IMG/VR virus record: IMGVR_UViG_648276648_000009
Span: 1 to 50,997 of that record
DNA length: 50,997 nucleotides
Direction: 5' to 3' (one strand)
Source of the DNA: a virus
Lineage: Duplodnaviria; Heunggongvirae; Uroviricota; Caudoviricetes
The translations under genes and the position numbers were made by a program. The notes beneath the pieces were generated by a model. The model worked only from the letters and a program-made list of their open reading frames with translations. It ran no database searches and had not been told where the DNA came from. Positions 1 to 50,997 of the stretch are shown in pieces. Positions within the stretch are counted from its first letter, which is position 1. Every line of letters starts with the position of its first letter.

Positions 1-361
1 CACGGCTTCCCGCTTCTGGTCTGTCGTCAGTACTTTCGCCCAAGAGCCACCTGAAGCGCCTCTTTATCCAGCATGGCTTCGGCAAGCAGCTTCTTGAGTC
101 TGGCGTTCTCTTCCTCAAGCGACTTCAGGCGCTTAACTTCAGGCACCTCCATACCGCCATACTTCTTACGCCAGGTGTAAAACGTGGCATCGGAAATGGC
201 ATGCTTGCGGCAGAGTTCACGGGCGGGTACCCCAGCTTCGGCTTCGCGGAGAATACTGATGATCTGTTCGTCGGAAAAACGCTTCTTCATGGGGATGTCC
301 TCATGTGGCTTATGAAGACATTACTAACATCGGGGTGTACTAATCAACGGGGAGCAGGTCA
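1..361 (-). mobile_element. IS3-family insertion sequence, partial (continues beyond window start); terminus placed near 353-361 where the minus strand reads TGACCTGCTCCCC
   Basis: OrfA-type transposase ORF at 27-290(-); TG-initiated terminus ~70 bp upstream of orfA start; boundary assigned by eye. Confidence 0.6.
27..290 (-). CDS. IS3-family transposase OrfA (HTH DNA-binding subunit)
   Basis: 87-aa ORF MKKRFSDEQIISILREAEAGVPARELCRKHAISDATFYTWRKKYGG... with C-terminal leucine-zipper-like heptads, typical of IS3/IS407-group OrfA. Confidence 0.85.
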   Translation of the reverse strand: MKKRFSDEQIISILREAEAGVPARELCRKHAISDATFYTWRKKYGGMEVPEVKRLKSLEEENARLKKLLAEAMLDKEALQVALGRKY

Positions 362-8905: not shown

Positions 8906-12050
<3,145 letters not shown>

Positions 12051-24264: not shown

Positions 24265-25817
24265 TTCTGCACCTCGCAGCCTTCAATTTCAGCCACAATC
24301 GCATCAATATCTTTACGCAACTGGTCGATTTTGCTGACCGTGATTTTCAGCTCTGCATTCAACTCAGCGATATCGATAATTTCGCGAGTATCTTTCGCTT
24401 CAACATAGCTGCTCACCGACAGGTTATAGTCATTAGCAACAACGGTCTCAAACGCGACTGATTTCGCCAGATGAGCAACATCTTCCTTGCTGGCAAATAC
24501 CTGCATAATCTGTTCGATATGGGCATCGGTCAGGATATTGTTGTTGGTCTCTTTTTTGAATAGTTCGCTGGCGTCAATAAACTGAACTTTTGTATCTGTT
24601 TTATGTTTAGACAACACCAGAATGTTTACGGCAATGGTGGTGCCAAAGAACAGGTTCGGTGCCAGTGAAATCACGGTTTCGACATAGTTATTATCAACCA
24701 GATACTGACGGATTTTCTGCTCCGCGCCGCCACGGTAAAAAATACCCGGGAAGCAAACAATCGCAGCACGACCTTTGGCAGAAAGATAGTTCAGCGCATG
24801 TAGTACAAAGGCGAAGTCAGCTTTTGATTTGGGGGCCAGAACGCCAGCCGGGGCAAAACGTTCATCGTTAATCAGCGTCGGGTCATCGCTGCCAATCCAT
24901 TTCACCGAATACGGCGGGTTAGAAACGATGGCATCAAACGGTTTTTCATCTCTGAAGTGTGGTTCAGTCAGCGTATTGCCCAGCTTGATATCAAACTTGT
25001 CGTAGTTGATGTTGTGCAAAAACATGTTCATACGCGCCAGGTTATAGGTCGTATGGTTGATTTCCTGACCAAAAAAACCTTCTTCGATGATATGGTCATC
25101 AAACTGTTTTTTAGCCTGCAACAACAGCGAACCGGAGCCTGCTGCCGGGTCGTAGATTTTGTTAACGTGGGTCTGCCCGTGCATAGCCAGTTGTGCAATC
25201 AGCTTAGAGACGTGCTGCGGTGTAAAGAACTCGCCGCCGGACTTACCGGCATTCGCGGCATAGTTAGAAATCAGGAACTCATAGGCGTCACCGAACAGAT
25301 CAATCTGATGTTCGGTGAAGTCACCAAGTTTTAACCCTTCAACCCCTTTCAGAACCGCAGCCAGGCGGGCATTTTTATCTTTAACGGTGTTACCCAGGCG
25401 GTTACTGGTGGTATCGAAATCAGCAAACAAACCTTTGATGTCTGCTTCTGAAGGGTAGCCGTAAGCAGAACTTTCGATAGCAACGAAGATACTGTTTAAA
25501 TCTGCATTCAGTCTGTCATTGGTATTTGCTTTCGCAGCTACGTTGCAGAAAAGCTGGCTTGGGTAGATGAAGTAGCCTTTGGTTTTGATGGCATCGTCTT
25601 TAATGTCATCAGTAATTACGCTGTCATCCAGTGCTGCATAACAGATGCTGTCATCATCGGCTTCCATATAGCTGGAAAAATTTTCGCTGATAAAACGATA
25701 AAAAAGCGCGCCCAGAACGTACTGCTTAAAATCCCATCCATCGACTGAACCCCTGACATCGTTAGCAATTTGCCAGATCTGGCGATGAAGTTCTGCACGT
25801 TGTTGAATACTTGTCAT
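24261..25817 (-). CDS. hsdM: Type I N6-adenine methyltransferase subunit (HsdM)
   Basis: 518 aa; AdoMet motif [10 protein letters not shown] and catalytic NPPY. Confidence 0.92.
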
Positions 25818-41499: not shown

Positions 41500-41721
41500 A
41501 TGGTTAATGCCAATCCTTGCGCACGCCCTGAATTTATCTGGCGCTTTTACTCCTGCCAGAAACGTCACTATCACTTCGTTATTGCACCGACAGAAGATGA
41601 GGCTCGCTCTCAGCTTCCGGATGCTCCCTGCATTTTCTCTGCCCGTTTTTCCACTGATTTGCGCAACTCTCTCAGTTACTGGTGTCTCCCTGTTAACGCT
41701 TCTGCTCAGGAGGGACTATGA
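41500..41721 (+). CDS. icd: Icd-like 73-aa protein, copy 2
   Basis: Identical to copy 1 except the first 9 residues and one S-to-L change; ATGA overlap with the antirepressor. Confidence 0.65.
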   Translation: MVNANPCARPEFIWRFYSCQKRHYHFVIAPTEDEARSQLPDAPCIFSARFSTDLRNSLSYWCLPVNASAQEGL

Positions 41722-42836
41722 GAACGTCATTAGTCACCCGTGAAGAGATGATCGAGGCAATTGAACAGCATACCGCCTGTATCAGTACCAAGGATATACC
41801 GGGCGTTATTGCCAACTACTTCATGATCACCAAACAACTTTACCGGAGAAAGGACAAGAACGCGGTTCACCGTATCCTGTTGTCTGATATCCGCGAATAC
41901 CTGCTCGAACAGGGTCATCTGAATTACGCAACCGTCGCAGCCGAAGCACGCAAGGAGGCACACAGAATGAAAGCAACTAACGTTAAATCAGAAAAAATTT
42001 ATGCACCTTCAGTTCAGGAATCGGAACTGGTGGTTGTTCAGAATCAGCCGGATGAAATTCCCGTTCTGGAATGGCAGGGAGTACGTGTCGTGACAACCGA
42101 AACTCTTGCTAGAGGGTATGGGACAGAAACAATCCGTATTCGCCAAAATCATCATGAGAACAAAGTACGCTTTGTTGAAGGGAAGCACTTTTTCAAAGTT
42201 GAAGGAGAATCATTGCGCGAGTTGAAGCACAGAGTAGCTTTAAACTACTCTGTAAAAATTGCTCGCAATGTTCGCTCACTCACCCTCTGGACAGAACGCG
42301 GCGCAGCCCGCCACGCTAAAATGCTCGAAACCGATCAGGCATGGGCATTCTTTGAAAAACTGGAAGACAGCTACTTCCGACAAAAAGAACAGCAACCGGT
42401 TGCAATCCCCCAGACGCTTCCAGAAGCCCTACGCCTGGCTGCCGAACTGGCTGAACAAAAGCAGCTTCTGGAACAGAAAGCCCACCAGCTAAATCAGCAG
42501 CTGGTGGCCGCCGCTCCTAAAGTCGATTTTGCCGACCGGGTATCAGTAGCTAAAGGGATCCTGATTGGGAATTTTGCAAAGGTTGTTGGACTTAAGCAAA
42601 ACGCGCTGTTTGCCTGGTTACGGGAGAACGGCATCCTGATTGCGTCCGGCGGGCGTAAAAATGTACCGCTCCAGCAATACATCAACGCCGGGTATTTCAC
42701 GGTGAAAGAAGTGGTGCTGGATGATGAAGATGGCTACCAGATACGGTTGACGCCTCAATTAACGGGTAAAGGCCAGCAGTGGTTGACGCGTAAACTGCTC
42801 GATGCTGGCTTGTTAAAACCGGTGGCAGCTGAATAA
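41718..42836 (+). CDS. ant: Phage antirepressor, copy 2 (mosaic: termini near-identical to copy 1, central ~70 aa divergent)
   Basis: 372 aa; direct comparison with 34536-35648. Confidence 0.85.
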   Translation: MRTSLVTREEMIEAIEQHTACISTKDIPGVIANYFMITKQLYRRKDKNAVHRILLSDIREYLLEQGHLNYATVAAEARKEAHRMKATNVKSEKIYAPSVQESELVVVQNQPDEIPVLEWQGVRVVTTETLARGYGTETIRIRQNHHENKVRFVEGKHFFKVEGESLRELKHRVALNYSVKIARNVRSLTLWTERGAARHAKMLETDQAWAFFEKLEDSYFRQKEQQPVAIPQTLPEALRLAAELAEQKQLLEQKAHQLNQQLVAAAPKVDFADRVSVAKGILIGNFAKVVGLKQNALFAWLRENGILIASGGRKNVPLQQYINAGYFTVKEVVLDDEDGYQIRLTPQLTGKGQQWLTRKLLDAGLLKPVAAE

Positions 42837-42967
42837 TGGAAGAATGCCCGGTTGAGATGCCGGGCATGATTAAATGTCTCTTCAGCACATTACCGAAGTT
42901 CAATCTTCAACCAAGAAGTGTACTCGCATACGATTATCGCAATAAAATACTTGAAGTTTTATAAACT

Positions 42968-43441
42968 GTGAGTATCATTGCCCATATGAAAACATCCTAT
43001 TTAACTATATTGGCTTTCCATATTCGCGATTTTCGCGAGAAGTATGGTGTTACTCAATCAGACATTGCATCTGGCCTTGGGATAACAAGTGCCGGTTGGG
43101 GAAAAATTGAAAATGGTAAGTCCTCTCTCTCTGTAGAGAATATGATGAAATTCTGTAAAATTATTAATATTGATGCAACCATACTTCTTGATATTTCCAC
43201 GAAATCGGCAAAAAACTTAATCAAATGTGGATGGAGTGTATCTTATTCTCCTGTTGAGGATGATAATTTAATAGACGGAAAAAATATATTTGCTAAAACA
43301 CATGGAATGAATAACGTCATGAGGAAATTTATAGACGGGAAACTTGGAAGTGTTTTAGACAAAGAATTTGATGACATTATTATGAAATATGCAACATTTT
43401 ATATGGTTGTAGCTAAAAATCTAAGAGATGACTTGATTTAA
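42968..43441 (+). CDS. XRE-family helix-turn-helix regulator with C-terminal extension
   Basis: HTH LTILAFHIRDFREKYGVTQSDIASGLGITSAGWGKIENGKSSLSVENMMKFCKIINI; AT-rich codon usage. Confidence 0.65.
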   Translation: MSIIAHMKTSYLTILAFHIRDFREKYGVTQSDIASGLGITSAGWGKIENGKSSLSVENMMKFCKIINIDATILLDISTKSAKNLIKCGWSVSYSPVEDDNLIDGKNIFAKTHGMNNVMRKFIDGKLGSVLDKEFDDIIMKYATFYMVVAKNLRDDLI

Positions 43442-43456
43442 AAATGGAGTGTACAT

Positions 43457-44209
43457 ATGGCATACAGACAAGACAGCGATCTTGAATTCCTAGCTAAATG
43501 TAGCGACCGTGATCTTGATGATTTAGTTAACCTATTGATTTATGATAACGATGGCAAAAAAAGATGGACTGAAGAGTTATCTAACAATCGACAATATAAG
43601 GAATTTGTACCAAGACATAGCGTATATTGGAGAGAAATTGCTGCTGAAATTCAATGTTATGGTGGAAATACCATAGCAACTCTCTTGCGTGGTGGTAAAG
43701 GGGTCTGCTACAGAGAAATTCTCATTGATGTATGCAATAAGCTAAAGGTTAATTTCAATGCCAAGAGCCGAATAGAGGTTATTGAACAAAATCTTCTATT
43801 AAAAATTCTCAGCGACTCTCTAGATAACATGTCATCCGAAGATATAAAAGTTTTTGCCATGGAACTTGGATTGGATGAAGTTACAAGATTTACTCCTGAG
43901 GCAGTTCTATCTGCCTTCCAATATATTTTCAGGGCCGGCGGTTTCAGATCTTATCAGGTAACTCTTAAATTTGCGAATCTTTTACTAAAAATTTTAATTG
44001 GACGCGGTTTGACACTCGCAGGTAATCAAATACTCGTAAAAGCATTATCTATTTTAACAGGCCCAATTGGTTGGACTATAACAGCCGCATGGACCATTGT
44101 AGATGTGGGAGGAACTGCTTATCGAGTAACAATTCCTGCTGTTATTCAAGTTGCTGTACTAAGGGCGAAAGTCAATAATAATATTAAAGACAGCGATATT
44201 ACCTTGTGA
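43457..44209 (+). CDS. YaaW/DUF3944-like protein with C-terminal glycine-rich hydrophobic segment
   Basis: 250 aa; YDNDGK...CYGGNTIATLLRGG...YREILIDVCNKL and C-terminal VDVGGTAYRVTIPAVIQVAVL resemble YaaW (UPF0174) as recalled; GGAGTG SD. Confidence 0.6.
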   Translation: MAYRQDSDLEFLAKCSDRDLDDLVNLLIYDNDGKKRWTEELSNNRQYKEFVPRHSVYWREIAAEIQCYGGNTIATLLRGGKGVCYREILIDVCNKLKVNFNAKSRIEVIEQNLLLKILSDSLDNMSSEDIKVFAMELGLDEVTRFTPEAVLSAFQYIFRAGGFRSYQVTLKFANLLLKILIGRGLTLAGNQILVKALSILTGPIGWTITAAWTIVDVGGTAYRVTIPAVIQVAVLRAKVNNNIKDSDITL

Positions 44210-44284: not shown

Positions 44285-44533
44285 TCAATCAGCATTCAGG
44301 AGCAATGCATTATCTATGATGATTTGCTCCCATTCTTCGAATGCCCGATCGCGGACACCCTGGGGAACACTGTTAGTTTTGAAATCGACGACCGTACGCC
44401 ATTTCCCGTCCGGACGGTACATGCGCAGAGCTTTACTTCCCCCTTCCCTGCGCACTTCAACGTTATGCTTATCAGCAAACTCTTGTAATGCTCGTAGCGT
44501 CCCATGCTTTACTGTGTAGTATCGCTTTTTCAA
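44285..44533 (-). CDS. lxc: Small protein, 82 aa, Lxc/Bof-like by size and position
   Basis: ORF downstream of the DarB-like gene on the same strand; assignment by synteny and size only. Confidence 0.5.
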   Translation of the reverse strand: MKKRYYTVKHGTLRALQEFADKHNVEVRREGGSKALRMYRPDGKWRTVVDFKTNSVPQGVRDRAFEEWEQIIIDNALLLNAD

Positions 44534-44970
44534 GTTTTCTCTCCAGCCTGTGCCAAGGCTTCAACTTCCAAATCGTAAGACTCAAACTCATAGTCCTGGT
44601 CGTCAACTTCTTCAGGCACTGGCAGTAAATGCCAGGCTGAGTATATCTGACCATTATCAAAACGCTCCTGGCTGTAGAGCGTCGCGGCTATGAGTGTTAG
44701 CGCCGGGCGGTCATAACGGTAAATTTTGCGAACGTCACGGTCAACGAGACGACCGAAATTACCATAACCGCGCTCCAGTAATAATTTTTTAATTTCCGGC
44801 CAGTATGGACCATAGCTGCGGTACAGGCGGGGATTTTTCAGTAATCGCCCGCGTAGCCCTGACAGGAAGAAATCAACGTATTCGTCTTCTGTCTTTCCTA
44901 ACAACGCTGTACGGAGTACCGCCTCAAGATATGTTTTATTCGGTTTTATTGTATCAGATAGTGTGGCCAT
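44530..44970 (-). CDS. Hypothetical protein, 146 aa (Ulx-like by position)
   Basis: ORF between the DarB-like and Lxc-like genes; 4-nt overlap with the downstream gene. Confidence 0.5.
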   Translation of the reverse strand: MATLSDTIKPNKTYLEAVLRTALLGKTEDEYVDFFLSGLRGRLLKNPRLYRSYGPYWPEIKKLLLERGYGNFGRLVDRDVRKIYRYDRPALTLIAATLYSQERFDNGQIYSAWHLLPVPEEVDDQDYEFESYDLEVEALAQAGEKT

Positions 44971-45003: not shown

Positions 45004-48000
45004 TTATGCGTATTGTTGGATGACGGCCAGAACGTCCGCCACGTTGTGTTTTGTCTCGATAATCCACCAGTTACCTGGGAAGTCGCTGTTCTTCGCCTTC
45101 GCTGGCAGCCAGCGAGCGCCGAATTTCGCCTTGATTGCGTCTTTCGCACGGAAAAGAACGCCTTTCATGCCTGAGGCTTCCTGAAGCCCAAATACCTCGC
45201 CAGCGGCGAATTTTGGTGCGTACATCATCTTCAGGTCGGCGGTGGATACGCGATAATTCAGACCAAGAGACTGAGCTATGCTGGTGGCATCACCCTGTAT
45301 TGATGATAACTCTTCTTGTTTCTCGTTTCTGGCGGCAATTTCTTCCTCCGTGATGTTGCCAAGGGCCAGGTTTATCCGATCAGCGTCGGCCTGTTTCTCT
45401 TCATCGGTGCGCCCGGCAAGAACCGTGTTAATTCTCTGCAATATCTCCACATGATTCTTGCGCATGCTGAGCAATTCCGGCGTAACCTCGTTAAGATCCA
45501 CCAGCCCAAGGATGGCAAGGTCGGAAAACATTGATACTAGGTTGTAGGTCATGCGATAGCTGAGTTGGCCATAGGCTGATGGCAACTGCACCGCATCCAT
45601 TTGATAGGCATCCATAAATTTAGAGCCGTCGTTTACGACATCCGCAATTGCAGGTGTGATTTTCCCTGTGGTGGCGGCCTCCCTGATTGCTGTTACCCAT
45701 GATTGAGTCAGTGCGGCGACTGCATGATTCAGATTGGCTTCCCGTTCTGCTGCGATGCGCGCGCTTGCTGAGTCCATTGCCTGCTTGATCTCGGCTTTAT
45801 TGCTGTAAATGCCGATGGTGCCAAACTGTGCTGTGGTGATCTCATAATCTGACGCCCGGAACTCATGGGTACCGAAAATGGCATTGGTGACCTCAAGTTC
45901 AGAATCCCCGTTACGAGTAGCCCCCTGGCTTGTTTTCTCCGGCATTTTTGCGATCGCATCCGCTATTTTCTCCTGAATTGCTTCAGGGGATAGCGTATCT
46001 CCGTATGACGCGATTACATCGCCATAATTGGAGCCAAACAATTCAACCAGGAATGTTTCTGCCGAACGGATCTGGCGGTTATTCCCTTCCGACATCATAC
46101 CAAGCACCCATTTTGCAATTGACGACTTCAGCGCGCCGTCACGGCGATCCGGGTAAACCGCATGCTTCAGTGGGGCCGTATAGGAACCAACAAAATCAAT
46201 GCTATAGCCTGACTCTGTAGTCTGAACGCCGTATGAGTCAGTGATTTTGATCATGCCGCGCTGCTGGAAACGGTAGAAATCGTCACAGGAAATGATGTCG
46301 TTAATCCCGGCGATGGAGACGCCACCACTGATTTTCTGCATAACAGCATCTTCATCGGGAGTTACATCAACCTGTTTATCCAGCGTCTTCACATCCCAGT
46401 TACCCGATTTGGTGCCTTTGAAGGTAAAGATGATCTCCACGTCTGCGCGCTGGCTGTCGAAGTCCAGCGACTTAATGCGAACGATATCACCGGCACAATC
46501 ATAGTATTGGCCTACACGCCATGAGCGATCGCCGATAACAAGGAACTCATTCGCATGGTTAACCAGATCAGGATCAACATCCAGAATGCCTTTATTTATT
46601 GCATCCTCCACCAGCGGGCGCAGGCGTTTGATATCCGTCGCGGCCTTCTGAGTACGGTTCAATAATTTCTCATAGCGGGAGATGGCCTGAGAGATATTAG
46701 CCTTGCGCTGAATGGCGCTTTTCAACGACGCGCGATACTGTGCTAACAACATACGGTCTGTGTGATGGACGCTACCCCAGCGGGCTTTCCAGTCTGCGTT
46801 ATCAGCTGCTTTGGCCATTACCGCCTGTTTGAATTTGGCGACGTCGGCGGTGGTCTTTTCAAGTTCCGCTTTGCTTCGCTCCAATTCAGCGGTAAGTACC
46901 TCCACATCCTCACCAGCTGCGTGCTGCGCCTTGATGTAGTTCTGAAGGTCGATAGTAGCCTGTTCTTTCTGGCGAGCGCGTTTCGCAGCTTTCGCCTTAT
47001 CCATTTGAACCTGCATCATTACCAGACGTTCGCCGTCATCCTTCGCGGTATACATCTGCATTTCGATCATGTCATTGGCGTCGGCGTTCTCCATTTCTGA
47101 CTTATCTGAACGGAGGATATCGGAGATCCAGCCTGCTTTACGCTTCAGCGTCTTCAGTCGGTATTCATCGAAAGACCCCTTGCCGCAGTAGTAGTGAACG
47201 CGAACGCTTGCACGGTTGGAGCCAACTCGTGCACCGCGACCGTTACGTTGTGCGATACTGGCTGGTGTCCACGGCAACGTCAGGTGGTGGATATCCGTCG
47301 TTCCTCGATGCAGGTTGATACCCACCTCTGCCTTTTTGTTGCAGATGATGATCGGAGTCCGGCCCTCCTGGAAGTCGGCTGCAATCTTTTCCAGACCGCC
47401 CAACGACATTTCATTTTGCTGCGCGATATAGGCGTCATACAGAGCCATTTGCTCGTTGTATTTCGCTATCTGTGCATCTGTTGGTTCATCCGGTAGCTCT
47501 TTCGGCGGTTTAACCGCTTTCAGTTTCTTACCGGTTTTACCTGCCTCGGCAACCGTCTGAGCATTCAGGATCCCCACCTTTGAAGGTTCAAGGTCTAGAG
47601 CATTGCAGATAATGCGCTTGAGCTTCTGGTGCTGCGTTTTTTCATCGGTGAAGATGACTTGCTTACCTTCCGGGAAAAACTCCTTCAGCGTGGCGATCAG
47701 CTTCGCGTATTTCGGCGTAACGGGGTGAGTTACGGTCAGTTCGTCAATGCCAAACCTGGCCAGGCGCTTATTCACTTCCTGCTCGAACGCTTCCGGAACC
47801 TGCAACTGAATAAACTCGCCCTTATCTATCAGGGAGTATTGCGATTGCTGCGTGATTGAATCATCACTGTCGTCGTCTTCGCTGGTGGCTTGTTTAGGCA
47901 AACTGTCCGCCAGCTGCTGCACCGCATCGGCGTACTCCGGCAGGAAACGATAGGTGATCCGGCGATAGTACAGGTCCATGTCAGTACATACGCGGTCCAT

Positions 48001-50496
48001 ATCCCTGATTATTGAGAAGATCGGACGGGCTTTCTCGTGCTCAATCACGCCGTCTTCATTGACCGAGGTCGTTACGCCATTGTTGGCTTTGGCCGCCGCT
48101 TCCGCCTGCTGACGCAATTCTTCATACGCCGCCAGTTGTTCTTCAGTAAGTGGTGCATCCTGCTGGTGTTCGTCCAGCTCCGGGATCTCCACGGTATCCT
48201 TAACGTCTTCCGCCGTTTTAAGCGTTACCCAGCGATGGAATATACCGCGCAGCGCATCAAGGTTTTCAAAGCCCACCAGCGCCATTTTTTCTTCAACTTC
48301 ACCGCTGATTTTCTGTACCGTTTCCAGCCTGGTCTTGCCGAAGAATTTAACGAAGTCATCAGGACCGTAGATCCCCATCTTCTGCCAGTATTCCTTCGGC
48401 AGCACATGAGAAAGCATGTTGTATGCATCGATCGGGGTGTTAACGACTGGCGTTGCAGTCAGGAGAACCGGTCCGCGCCCACCATTCTTTTTCATCAGGT
48501 ACGCGTTTTTAATTGCCATATCCCGCGCCGATTGCGCCACCGCGCTGGTGGGCAGATAGGCCAGTTGTGACGCTTCGCGACCATTTTTATAGCTATTGCG
48601 GTAGTTGTGACCTTCGTCAGCGATCACACTATCGAAGCCCATATCCTCAAAGTACGGATACTTCTCTGCTTTTTCGGTGCCGGTATCTGAATACTCCGAC
48701 AATACCCGGCGACGCGCGGCCTCTTTGCGGTGGGAGTCGGAGTCCATTGCGCTGGCTACGCGTCCGGCGGCAACGAAGTCATAAAGCATATCCTGTGCAT
48801 GCTCATCTACGGTGTCATCACGTAGCGGAATGCGGGCGTATTGTTCTTTGGTAAACACGACTGCACGGTAATTTGAGTGCGGGATCGCGTTCATCCGCGC
48901 CGTGATAGTGGCTTCATCTGCCAGCTTAAGAGCATCGCGCATAACTGGAGTGCCATCAGTACCAAGAACAGGTTTACCGTTCTCATCGAGCACCGGCACC
49001 TGGCGAATCTGATCGCCATCCATCAGCACATCAAGACCGACGAACAGGTAGTTACTGAATGCCTCTTCACTCAGGAATTCTTTTGCTTCGTAATACCAGT
49101 TTTCCAGCACTGATTTAGGCACTACATACGCAGTACGGGTGGAGCGACCGTTCTCATAGTTGAACGCCTCAAGCGCCAGCGCGGTCGTGGTTTTACCCAG
49201 CCCGGTGCCGAAGCCCAGGATGCCGCGCCCATCTTCGGACAGTCGGCGCACCTCGCTATTCTGGTAATCAAATGGCTGGCGCTTACCGCTTAATCCCTTC
49301 AACCCAAGCGGATCGCCAGAGTGTTCATACGGGATATTGCTATTGAACACATCGTTGTATTTGGCAACCAGTTCATCGTAGCGATCGTGCGTCTTGATCC
49401 ACTTATTGAACTGGTCCTCAAGCAGTGCCATCTGCTCGCGGTAGCCGTTCGCCGTCGCGCTATCTTTGCCACCGATACGCGCACCATTGAGATACTTTTC
49501 CAGCTGTGCCGGGAACCCGGTCGCGTTTTCACCTGATTTACGGTCCCACTCGTAGCGGATCTCGCCTGTTTCTTTATCCTTGCGCTGGACGACACCGTAT
49601 CGGTGCCCGACGAACAGACCATCACCACCGTGATAGGTGTCAGAAACCATTTCGTCGCCTTCCAGCTGCACTGACTGCACATAGCGAAGATCTGGATAGC
49701 CGTTTTCCTGCAAAAATTCCAGAATGACGGAACGGTCGAACCAACGGCTATTGAGCTTAAAGCGGATATTCTCTGCTGGCGTCTTGATGCGCTTCTCTTC
49801 GATCGCTGCCAGCTGATTAAGGACGTTGTTCTTTACTGGACCGTCGGGGAGTGTGGCAAGGAATTCCTGTTTTGGTGCCACTATCTCGTTAATGTCGCCG
49901 CTGGTGGCGCGGGCGAACGGAACAATCCCGCCATACGGTGAAACCGCAATGCCAGGGGTGCTGGCCAATAAATTAAGCAACTCGTCATCACTGGCTGGCA
50001 GTTCGCCGGTAAACGCAAGGCGGAAATCATCGAGCTGGATTGGATCGCGAGTGAGATCACTGTAGAGATAACGCAGGGTGTCCTGATAGCTGGTGGAGTC
50101 ATAACTGGCGCTGGAATCATGCGTAACCAGTTTTCCTGTCAGCTCGTCAGAAATAGTGCCATCCAGCTTAATTGCACCACGGAAAGCAAACCAGGCGCGC
50201 GCACCGCTCCCCGATAATTTCGCTATCGGACCGCGACCGGGGTTACCAAAACGGTCAATCTCTGCCTGCAAACGGGATACCAGAGAAAGGCGCTGCTGTT
50301 CGATTTGTTCAGCACTATGCCCGGCGGCCTTCATGTCCTGATATTCAATTAACATCCGGCCAATCATCGCCCCGCGATACAAGCGTTCACGGTATTTTTC
50401 AGGCTGGCTGTTAATCCAGTCCACCAGCTGCACCATATCGTCGCTGATTGATGTGGTGTACTTATCGCGGACATTTGCCATCTGGGTAAATGTCAT
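45004..50496 (-). CDS. darB: Large DExH/SNF2-type helicase-domain protein (DarB-like defence-against-restriction protein), possibly 5'-truncated by IS26
   Basis: 1830 aa; helicase motifs GFGTGLGKTTTALA, VIADEGHNYRN, QRNGRGARVG; no methyltransferase motif; frame open from the first Met up to the IS26 boundary. Confidence 0.7.
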   Translation of the reverse strand: MTFTQMANVRDKYTTSISDDMVQLVDWINSQPEKYRERLYRGAMIGRMLIEYQDMKAAGHSAEQIEQQRLSLVSRLQAEIDRFGNPGRGPIAKLSGSGARAWFAFRGAIKLDGTISDELTGKLVTHDSSASYDSTSYQDTLRYLYSDLTRDPIQLDDFRLAFTGELPASDDELLNLLASTPGIAVSPYGGIVPFARATSGDINEIVAPKQEFLATLPDGPVKNNVLNQLAAIEEKRIKTPAENIRFKLNSRWFDRSVILEFLQENGYPDLRYVQSVQLEGDEMVSDTYHGGDGLFVGHRYGVVQRKDKETGEIRYEWDRKSGENATGFPAQLEKYLNGARIGGKDSATANGYREQMALLEDQFNKWIKTHDRYDELVAKYNDVFNSNIPYEHSGDPLGLKGLSGKRQPFDYQNSEVRRLSEDGRGILGFGTGLGKTTTALALEAFNYENGRSTRTAYVVPKSVLENWYYEAKEFLSEEAFSNYLFVGLDVLMDGDQIRQVPVLDENGKPVLGTDGTPVMRDALKLADEATITARMNAIPHSNYRAVVFTKEQYARIPLRDDTVDEHAQDMLYDFVAAGRVASAMDSDSHRKEAARRRVLSEYSDTGTEKAEKYPYFEDMGFDSVIADEGHNYRNSYKNGREASQLAYLPTSAVAQSARDMAIKNAYLMKKNGGRGPVLLTATPVVNTPIDAYNMLSHVLPKEYWQKMGIYGPDDFVKFFGKTRLETVQKISGEVEEKMALVGFENLDALRGIFHRWVTLKTAEDVKDTVEIPELDEHQQDAPLTEEQLAAYEELRQQAEAAAKANNGVTTSVNEDGVIEHEKARPIFSIIRDMDRVCTDMDLYYRRITYRFLPEYADAVQQLADSLPKQATSEDDDSDDSITQQSQYSLIDKGEFIQLQVPEAFEQEVNKRLARFGIDELTVTHPVTPKYAKLIATLKEFFPEGKQVIFTDEKTQHQKLKRIICNALDLEPSKVGILNAQTVAEAGKTGKKLKAVKPPKELPDEPTDAQIAKYNEQMALYDAYIAQQNEMSLGGLEKIAADFQEGRTPIIICNKKAEVGINLHRGTTDIHHLTLPWTPASIAQRNGRGARVGSNRASVRVHYYCGKGSFDEYRLKTLKRKAGWISDILRSDKSEMENADANDMIEMQMYTAKDDGERLVMMQVQMDKAKAAKRARQKEQATIDLQNYIKAQHAAGEDVEVLTAELERSKAELEKTTADVAKFKQAVMAKAADNADWKARWGSVHHTDRMLLAQYRASLKSAIQRKANISQAISRYEKLLNRTQKAATDIKRLRPLVEDAINKGILDVDPDLVNHANEFLVIGDRSWRVGQYYDCAGDIVRIKSLDFDSQRADVEIIFTFKGTKSGNWDVKTLDKQVDVTPDEDAVMQKISGGVSIAGINDIISCDDFYRFQQRGMIKITDSYGVQTTESGYSIDFVGSYTAPLKHAVYPDRRDGALKSSIAKWVLGMMSEGNNRQIRSAETFLVELFGSNYGDVIASYGDTLSPEAIQEKIADAIAKMPEKTSQGATRNGDSELEVTNAIFGTHEFRASDYEITTAQFGTIGIYSNKAEIKQAMDSASARIAAEREANLNHAVAALTQSWVTAIREAATTGKITPAIADVVNDGSKFMDAYQMDAVQLPSAYGQLSYRMTYNLVSMFSDLAILGLVDLNEVTPELLSMRKNHVEILQRINTVLAGRTDEEKQADADRINLALGNITEEEIAARNEKQEELSSIQGDATSIAQSLGLNYRVSTADLKMMYAPKFAAGEVFGLQEASGMKGVLFRAKDAIKAKFGARWLPAKAKNSDFPGNWWIIETKHNVADVLAVIQQYA

Positions 50497-50535
50497 GCCG
50501 AGACGGCCTTCTGTTGTAGTCAGGTTACGCTGAAG

Positions 50536-50997
50536 GGCACTGTTGCAAAGTTAGCGATGAGGCAGCCTTTTGTCTTATTCAAAGGCCTTACATTTCAAAA
50601 ACTCTGCTTACCAGGCGCATTTCGCCCAGGGGATCACCATAATAAAATGCTGAGGCCTGGCCTTTGCGTAGTGCACGCATCACCTCAATACCTTTGATGG
50701 TGGCGTAAGCCGTCTTCATGGATTTAAATCCCAGCGTGGCGTTGATTATCCGTTTCAGTTTGCCATGATCGCATTCAATCACGTTGTTCCGGTACTTAAT
50801 CTGTCGGTGTTCAACGTCAGACGGGCACCGGCCTTCGCGTTTGAGCAGAGCAAGCGCGCGACCATAGGCGGGCGCTTTATCCGTGTTGATGAATCGTGGG
50901 ATCTGCCACTTCTTCACGTTGTTGAGGATTTTACCCAGAAACCGGTATGCAGCTTTGCTGTTACGACGGGAGGAGAGATAAAAATCGACAGTGCGGC
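50536..50997 (-). mobile_element. IS26 (IS6 family), partial; terminal inverted repeat GGCACTGTTGCAAA at 50536-50549, element continues beyond window end
   Basis: Characteristic 14-bp IR and Tnp26 C-terminal sequence. Confidence 0.9.
50588..50997 (-). CDS. tnpA: IS26 transposase Tnp26, C-terminal part (N-terminus off-window)
   Basis: ...NVKKWQIPRFINTDKAPAYGRALALLKREGRCPSDVEHRQIKYRNNVIECDHGKLKRI...RLVSRVFEM matches IS26 transposase as recalled. Confidence 0.92.
   Translation of the reverse strand, partial: RTVDFYLSSRRNSKAAYRFLGKILNNVKKWQIPRFINTDKAPAYGRALALLKREGRCPSDVEHRQIKYRNNVIECDHGKLKRIINATLGFKSMKTAYATIKGIEVMRALRKGQASAFYYGDPLGEMRLVSRVFEM

Follow-up and report, generated by a model that had tools for sequence, protein, structure and literature searches.

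A 5'-truncated darB gene joined to IS26-v1 in a P1-like phage-plasmid

DarB of phage P1 (YP_006479.1, 2255 amino acids (aa)) is the archetype of the polyvalent virion proteins that combine LPD36, a methyltransferase and an SF2 helicase, and of a methyltransferase that is nearly always fused to such a helicase (Iyer et al., PMC5512222). It is a virion protein, co-injected with the DNA, and it protects that DNA in cis against EcoK/EcoB-type restriction (PMC9024508, PMC5512222). DarB residues 1-30 suffice to target a reporter to the capsid, and N-terminal deletions abolish capsid packaging (Gonzales et al., PMC9024508). In P1 (NC_005856) darB is located at 10469-17236 on the minus strand, and an annotated predicted sigma-70 promoter, PdarB, at 17292-17322. 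N6_Mtase/Eco57I Pfam matches were obtained at residues 145-290 of the intact protein; its N6-adenine methyltransferase domain is EcoKI/TaqI-like, and the methyltransferase motifs I (EPSAGTG) and IV (GNVPF) are found at residues 117 and 179. Here, a stretch of 50,997 nucleotides (nt) from a virus of the Caudoviricetes (IMG/VR record IMGVR_UViG_648276648_000009, positions 1 to 50,997; referred to as the window) was analysed. The window is a segment of a P1-like phage-plasmid and is collinear with P1 from approximately nt 65360, past the point where the P1 record ends and restarts, as far as nt 16000. An IS26 transposition event very probably broke the darB gene of this element after codon 412 and thereby abolished its function; a known gene is disrupted by a known element, the insertion sequence (IS) IS26-v1, in a known way, which is ordinary biology.

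The longest open reading frame (ORF) overlapping the interval under study, designated darB', occupies 45004-50496 (minus strand) and encodes 1830 aa, starting at the first ATG that is available and ending at the native stop. Its first Met corresponds to Met426 of P1 DarB and the ORF to residues 426-2255. Between this Met and IS26 lie 39 bases (50497-50535, minus strand), which are 13 residual darB codons (P1 codons 413-425, LQRNLTTTEGRLG), all of them sense codons and none an in-frame ATG, GTG or TTG. An initial annotation, made from the letters of the window, had described 14 open codons at this place; the frame is indeed open, and the count is corrected to 13. Window position 50535 corresponds to P1 nt 16000, and the missing 1236 nt amount to 412 codons. 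The approximately 425 missing residues given by the same annotation are correct when counted to the first usable Met (425), and 412 codons are physically absent. Likewise, the alignment to P1 DarB, expected near residue 425, was found to begin at residue 413 at the junction, with the first Met at 426. When the frame was translated from the junction and compared with P1 DarB residues 413-2255 using BLASTP, 1823/1843 positions were identical (~99%), with no gaps. Positions 49000-50997 were also compared with phage genomes by megablast, and P1, P7, SJ46, phi456, RCS47 and others were matched at 98-99.7% identity. Every one of these matches ended at query position 1536 (window 50535), except that a chance GC carried the match on to 50538 in three records, and beyond 50535 the query matched IS26. 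In a three-way alignment, the window, P1 and SJ46 were near-identical up to the junction and unrelated beyond it. Homology, to hundreds of P1-like plasmids as well as to P1 and SJ46, is lost where the IS26 inverted repeat begins (50536).

The 14-base pair (bp) terminal inverted repeat of IS26 (GGCACTGTTGCAAA, plus-strand reading) was found at 50536-50549, where it had been placed initially, and occurs once in the window (0.01 chance matches expected). It forms the end of the element downstream of tnp26, and its base 50536 is the exact breakpoint. The IS26 copy occupies 50536-50997 on the minus strand and is partial (462 of 820 bp), because the window and the source contig both end within it and leave its 5' 358 bp outside. 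The 3' part of tnp26 is present (Tnp26 residues 100-234, with the single substitution G184N; stop at 50588-50590), and 459/462 bases were identical to annotated canonical IS26, the differences being the adjacent positions 50742 and 50743 (Gly184 to Asn) and the silent position 50897. The three differences fit the description of IS26-v1 (PMC9412624), and on the 14-bp repeat, the 459 bases and G184N, as seen over these 462 of 820 bp, the copy is assigned to this G184N variant. tnp26 (minus strand) has its 3' end towards darB', and the two genes share a direction of transcription. Read upstream into IS26, the darB frame remains open for five further codons (L-C-N-S-A) and is ended by a TAA at 50551-50553 (minus strand), and therefore no Tnp26-DarB fusion protein is possible; the tnp26 stop lies in another frame than darB'. 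That the contig is interrupted within IS26 suggests two or more copies of this element in the genome.

The remnant has the same helicase motifs and C-terminal region as P1 DarB and is likewise followed by ulx and lxc. Within the ORF, Walker A (motif I, GTGLGKT) was found at residue 430, motif II (DEGH) at 627 and motif VI (QRNGRG) at 1083, together with Pfam matches to ResIII (408-479), SNF2-rel_dom (E = 2.8e-11) and Helicase_C (1030-1092). These place the retained SF2/SNF2 helicase core at 47221-49275 on the minus strand, and the helicase families were found by Pfam in both P1 DarB and the darB' ORF. No N6_Mtase/Eco57I Pfam match was obtained in the ORF, and no methyltransferase motif of the EPSAGTG, GNVPF or [ND]PP[YFW] (NPPY/DPPY) type was present in the remnant. 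The complete DExH helicase core and the missing methyltransferase motif, both noted initially, were thus recovered, and the P1 DarB of about 2255 aa with an N-terminal methyltransferase, as described there, agreed with the reference protein. Unlike P1 DarB, the remnant has IS26 in place of PdarB and of residues 1-412. This missing segment comprises the capsid-targeting signal (the N-terminal 30 residues), the LPD36 region and, with both of its motifs, the complete N6-adenine methyltransferase module. It had been proposed that IS26 removed the methyltransferase domain and the native promoter; both do lie upstream of the break and outside the window, and the data are compatible with their removal as well as with their displacement.

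Nine Chi octamers were counted in the remnant (45280-50421; plus strand, five; minus strand, four). This agrees with a report that darB is rich in Chi, a property that can give protein-independent restriction alleviation when the gene is cloned (PMC11109961).

Expression signals were examined by a consensus scan of 50300-50997, in which no sigma-70-like promoter and no terminator-like hairpin was found on either strand. An outward TTGCAA in the IS26 repeat is a possible -35 box, and the hexamers 15-18 nt downstream of it (TAACCT, AACCTG, ACCTGA and CCTGAC) are, by reading of the sequence, poor -10 boxes. The creation of hybrid promoters by IS26 is reported in a passage of PMC9600943 that cites Varani et al. 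A Shine-Dalgarno-like GAAGG element is situated 10 nt upstream of Met426, a suboptimal spacing. By the proposed mechanism, the IS26 event would have severed darB from PdarB, from residues 1-412 and from both methyltransferase catalytic motifs. Transcription of the remnant would then be weak at best, arising from tnp26 read-through on the same strand, and translation from Met426 behind the GAAGG element would be poor. Any product would probably be barred from the P1 capsid, because according to the published work DarB packaging needs the N-terminal ~30 residues, and would not accompany the DNA at injection. The element would lose its DarB-dependent protection against EcoK/EcoB-type type I restriction, and a product without residues 1-425 should be non-functional in anti-restriction, whatever helicase activity it has kept.

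The retained sequence was compared with that of plasmid pSBF22b and of P1. There were 35 nt differences from pSBF22b (27 synonymous and 8 non-synonymous codons) and 97 from P1 (74 synonymous and 20 non-synonymous codons), and no frameshift or internal stop was found in the 1843 codons of the remnant. These differences are ordinary between-lineage variation under purifying selection and give no sign of decay after inactivation. The unbroken frame together with the mostly synonymous differences therefore suggests a break of recent date, and darB' is best regarded as a non-functional pseudogene that arose recently. Proper annotation would be as a 5'-truncated darB pseudogene, and not as a helicase or an 'N-6 DNA methylase'.

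The exact 1830-aa protein was found in two public records only. One is scaffold GL884141.1 (assembly GCA_000176575.2, 94,906 bp), the last 50,997 bases of which are the window. The other is the pseudo-chromosome OU349840.1, in which a gap of 1000 Ns follows at the corresponding position. The sequence ends 462 bp into IS26 in each case, so the two records amount in effect to a single draft contig interrupted by a repeat. The "chromosome" of OU349840.1 was seen to consist of draft contigs joined by 1000-N gaps, with the P1-like contig beside an rRNA fragment and metA/aceBAK; because the record is stitched from contigs, this apparent chromosomal site is no evidence for plasmid integration.

The darB-IS26 junction was searched for in several collections. 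With a 600-bp probe at ≥80% cover it was found in 0 of the at least 5000 best PLSDB records and in 0/6252 matching RefSeq complete E. coli records, and an exact 32-mer gave 0 matches in IMG/VR, GTDB species representatives and JGI metagenomes. By comparison, at least 80% of the retained part of darB was covered by 444 PLSDB records. This darB breakpoint appears confined to one strain. The reciprocal junction, composed of the IS26 end, CGCTGAAG (the 8-bp target duplication predicted for a simple insertion) and P1 sequence from nt 16001, also gave 0 matches in IMG/VR, GTDB representatives and JGI metagenomes. The displaced 5' fragment, for which a search had been recommended, was found neither in the window nor in the preceding 10 kb of the scaffold, whether with 20-mers of darB codons 1-412 or with 18-mers of P1 16001-23000 (prt, pro, lyz, ssb and isaA); the far side of IS26 lies outside the contig. 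A protein search with DarB residues 1-412 returned 77 N-terminal fragments, and no IS26-derived tail was present in the inspected representatives or listed cluster members. Twenty predicted 431-aa chimeras of DarB residues 1-412 with IS26 (N-terminal variants followed by LQRALLQIVGGDKLIIPFC) were absent from the protein collection, a weak negative given that the N-terminal sequence of this strain is not known. The scaffold is by arithmetic ~6-7 kb shorter than a full P1-type circle, roughly the distance that separates the break from the isaA-IS1 variable hot spot. This shortfall would be explained equally well by an adjacent deletion mediated by IS26 or by a small contig of its own with IS26 and IS1 at its ends; such a deletion would also take away the portal and prohead protease genes and leave the prophage defective. 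The break itself could have arisen either by simple or composite insertion, or by IS26-mediated adjacent deletion or cointegration.

Other origins of the ORF and of the join were weighed against disruption by IS26. A natural helicase-only DarB homologue, starting at this Met and with IS26 merely having landed upstream, would account for a long and uninterrupted ORF with a complete SF2 core. However, darB sequence continues for 13 codons upstream of the Met, and homology ends only at IS26. The nearest full-length allele, on plasmid pSBF22b (99.4% identical over 5532 nt), encodes 2255 aa, as does P1 darB, and the two proteins share the N-terminus MNKLSMGVF..., while the N-terminal DarB homologues found carry an N6_Mtase domain. 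The initial annotation had set its proposal against full-length homologues that begin at the same Met and have no methyltransferase domain, and the two 2255-aa proteins are the opposite of these. Together with the near-obligate fusion of the methyltransferase and helicase that has been published (PMC5512222), these observations identify the 1830-aa ORF, as judged from sequence, as truncated darB. A naturally short form was rejected because darB codons reach IS26 and the intact alleles have 2255 aa, and it retains next to no probability. It is also very unlikely that the join is an assembly artefact, a chimeric contig end made by the repeat. The contig does end inside IS26, the two public records share that end and one of them is stitched with 1000-N gaps, and the junction is absent from PLSDB, RefSeq complete E. 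coli, IMG/VR, GTDB representatives and JGI metagenomes. Mis-joins, however, are expected at arbitrary positions or inside shared sequence, whereas here darB meets the outermost base of the IS26 terminal repeat, the signature of transposition, and darB and IS26 have no common sequence able to cause a mis-join.

A slim chance is given to expression of the truncated gene, through tnp26 read-through or an IS26 hybrid promoter, with a helicase-only protein functional in the lysogen. The same-strand arrangement of tnp26 and darB' with no terminator-like site between them, the possible -35 box, the hybrid promoters reported in the cited passage of PMC9600943 and the undecayed ORF would all agree with this. 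On the other side, no promoter-like site at the junction passed the scan, the candidate -10 boxes are poor and the Shine-Dalgarno spacing is suboptimal. The product would be without the capsid-targeting signal, so the one role known for DarB, an action in cis on injected DNA, would be closed to it, and the missing decay is equally explained by a recent event. A hybrid promoter was rejected as the leading explanation because there is no promoter-like site at the junction. IS26-v1 has been reported to have enhanced activity, and a bolder proposal would have the remnant read through from a hyperactive IS26-v1 tnp26, its SNF2-translocase activity benefiting the plasmid, or else the loss of DarB selected because the plasmid has a complete type I system of its own (hsdRSM, 19758-25817), with the intact frame as a product of selection; this was considered highly improbable. 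The preferred explanation, disruption of darB by IS26 with loss of function, has its own weak points. With an intact ORF that shares its strand with tnp26, some expression is conceivable, and loss of function was deduced from the missing N-terminus. The mechanism of DarB and any stand-alone activity of its helicase are not known (PMC11109961). Finally, both assemblies with the junction are apparently the same draft contig, so that the junction has no independent replication.

Disrupted darB alleles are common in public data. In SJ46 darB is annotated as two coding sequences (a split gene), and in public N-terminal DarB fragments collinearity with P1 ends after residues 284, 447, 493, 511, 623, 672 and 732, those ending after 672 and 732 being present in 84 and 73 contigs, respectively. 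Each of these fragments carries a short unrelated tail after the collinear part. The breaks thus differ in position from the one described here, and an IS26-derived tail was found in none of those inspected. Together, the alleles suggest that loss of intact darB is recurrent in P1-like plasmids. Any phage particles of the present element are predicted to be without DarB and sensitive to EcoK/EcoB-type restriction, which would narrow its transfer by infection. Considered with a second IS lesion at the start of the window, the truncation fits the known picture in which insertion sequences, IS26 among them, remodel P1-like phage-plasmids and at times cripple them.

That second IS-associated lesion of the same plasmid is the remnant of an IS3-family element. 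The window begins inside the truncated element (1-361), which adjoins P1 nt 65360. Its parts are an orfA of 87 aa with HTH_Tnp_1 (27-290, minus strand) and, immediately upstream of the window in the scaffold, an rve fragment of 134 aa. In other P1-like loci the position of P1 nt 65360 is occupied by a 262-aa gene and a 94-aa gene.

Downstream of darB' the gene order darB-ulx-lxc is the same as in P1. The Dar-system accessory gene ulx is intact at 44530-44970 (minus strand; 144/146 residues identical to P1 Ulx) and is followed by lxc (82 aa) at 44285-44533 on the same strand. A complete type I restriction-modification system is encoded at 19758-25817 on the minus strand (hsdR, 1058 aa; hsdS, 422 aa; hsdM, 518 aa). 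This region has no P1 match, P1 homology ending at ~19682, and matches phage vB_EcoM-673R5; the plasmid thus has a type I system as cargo while its own anti-type-I gene, darB, is broken. At 41718-44209, an ORF6N/ANT antirepressor-like gene, an HTH_3 regulator (157 aa) and a DUF3944 protein (250 aa) were identified. The P1 counterpart of this interval holds the type III res/mod genes next to lxc, and in relatives the same slot is filled by a RelA/SpoT-family gene (SJ46) or a SIR2-family gene (pSBF22b).

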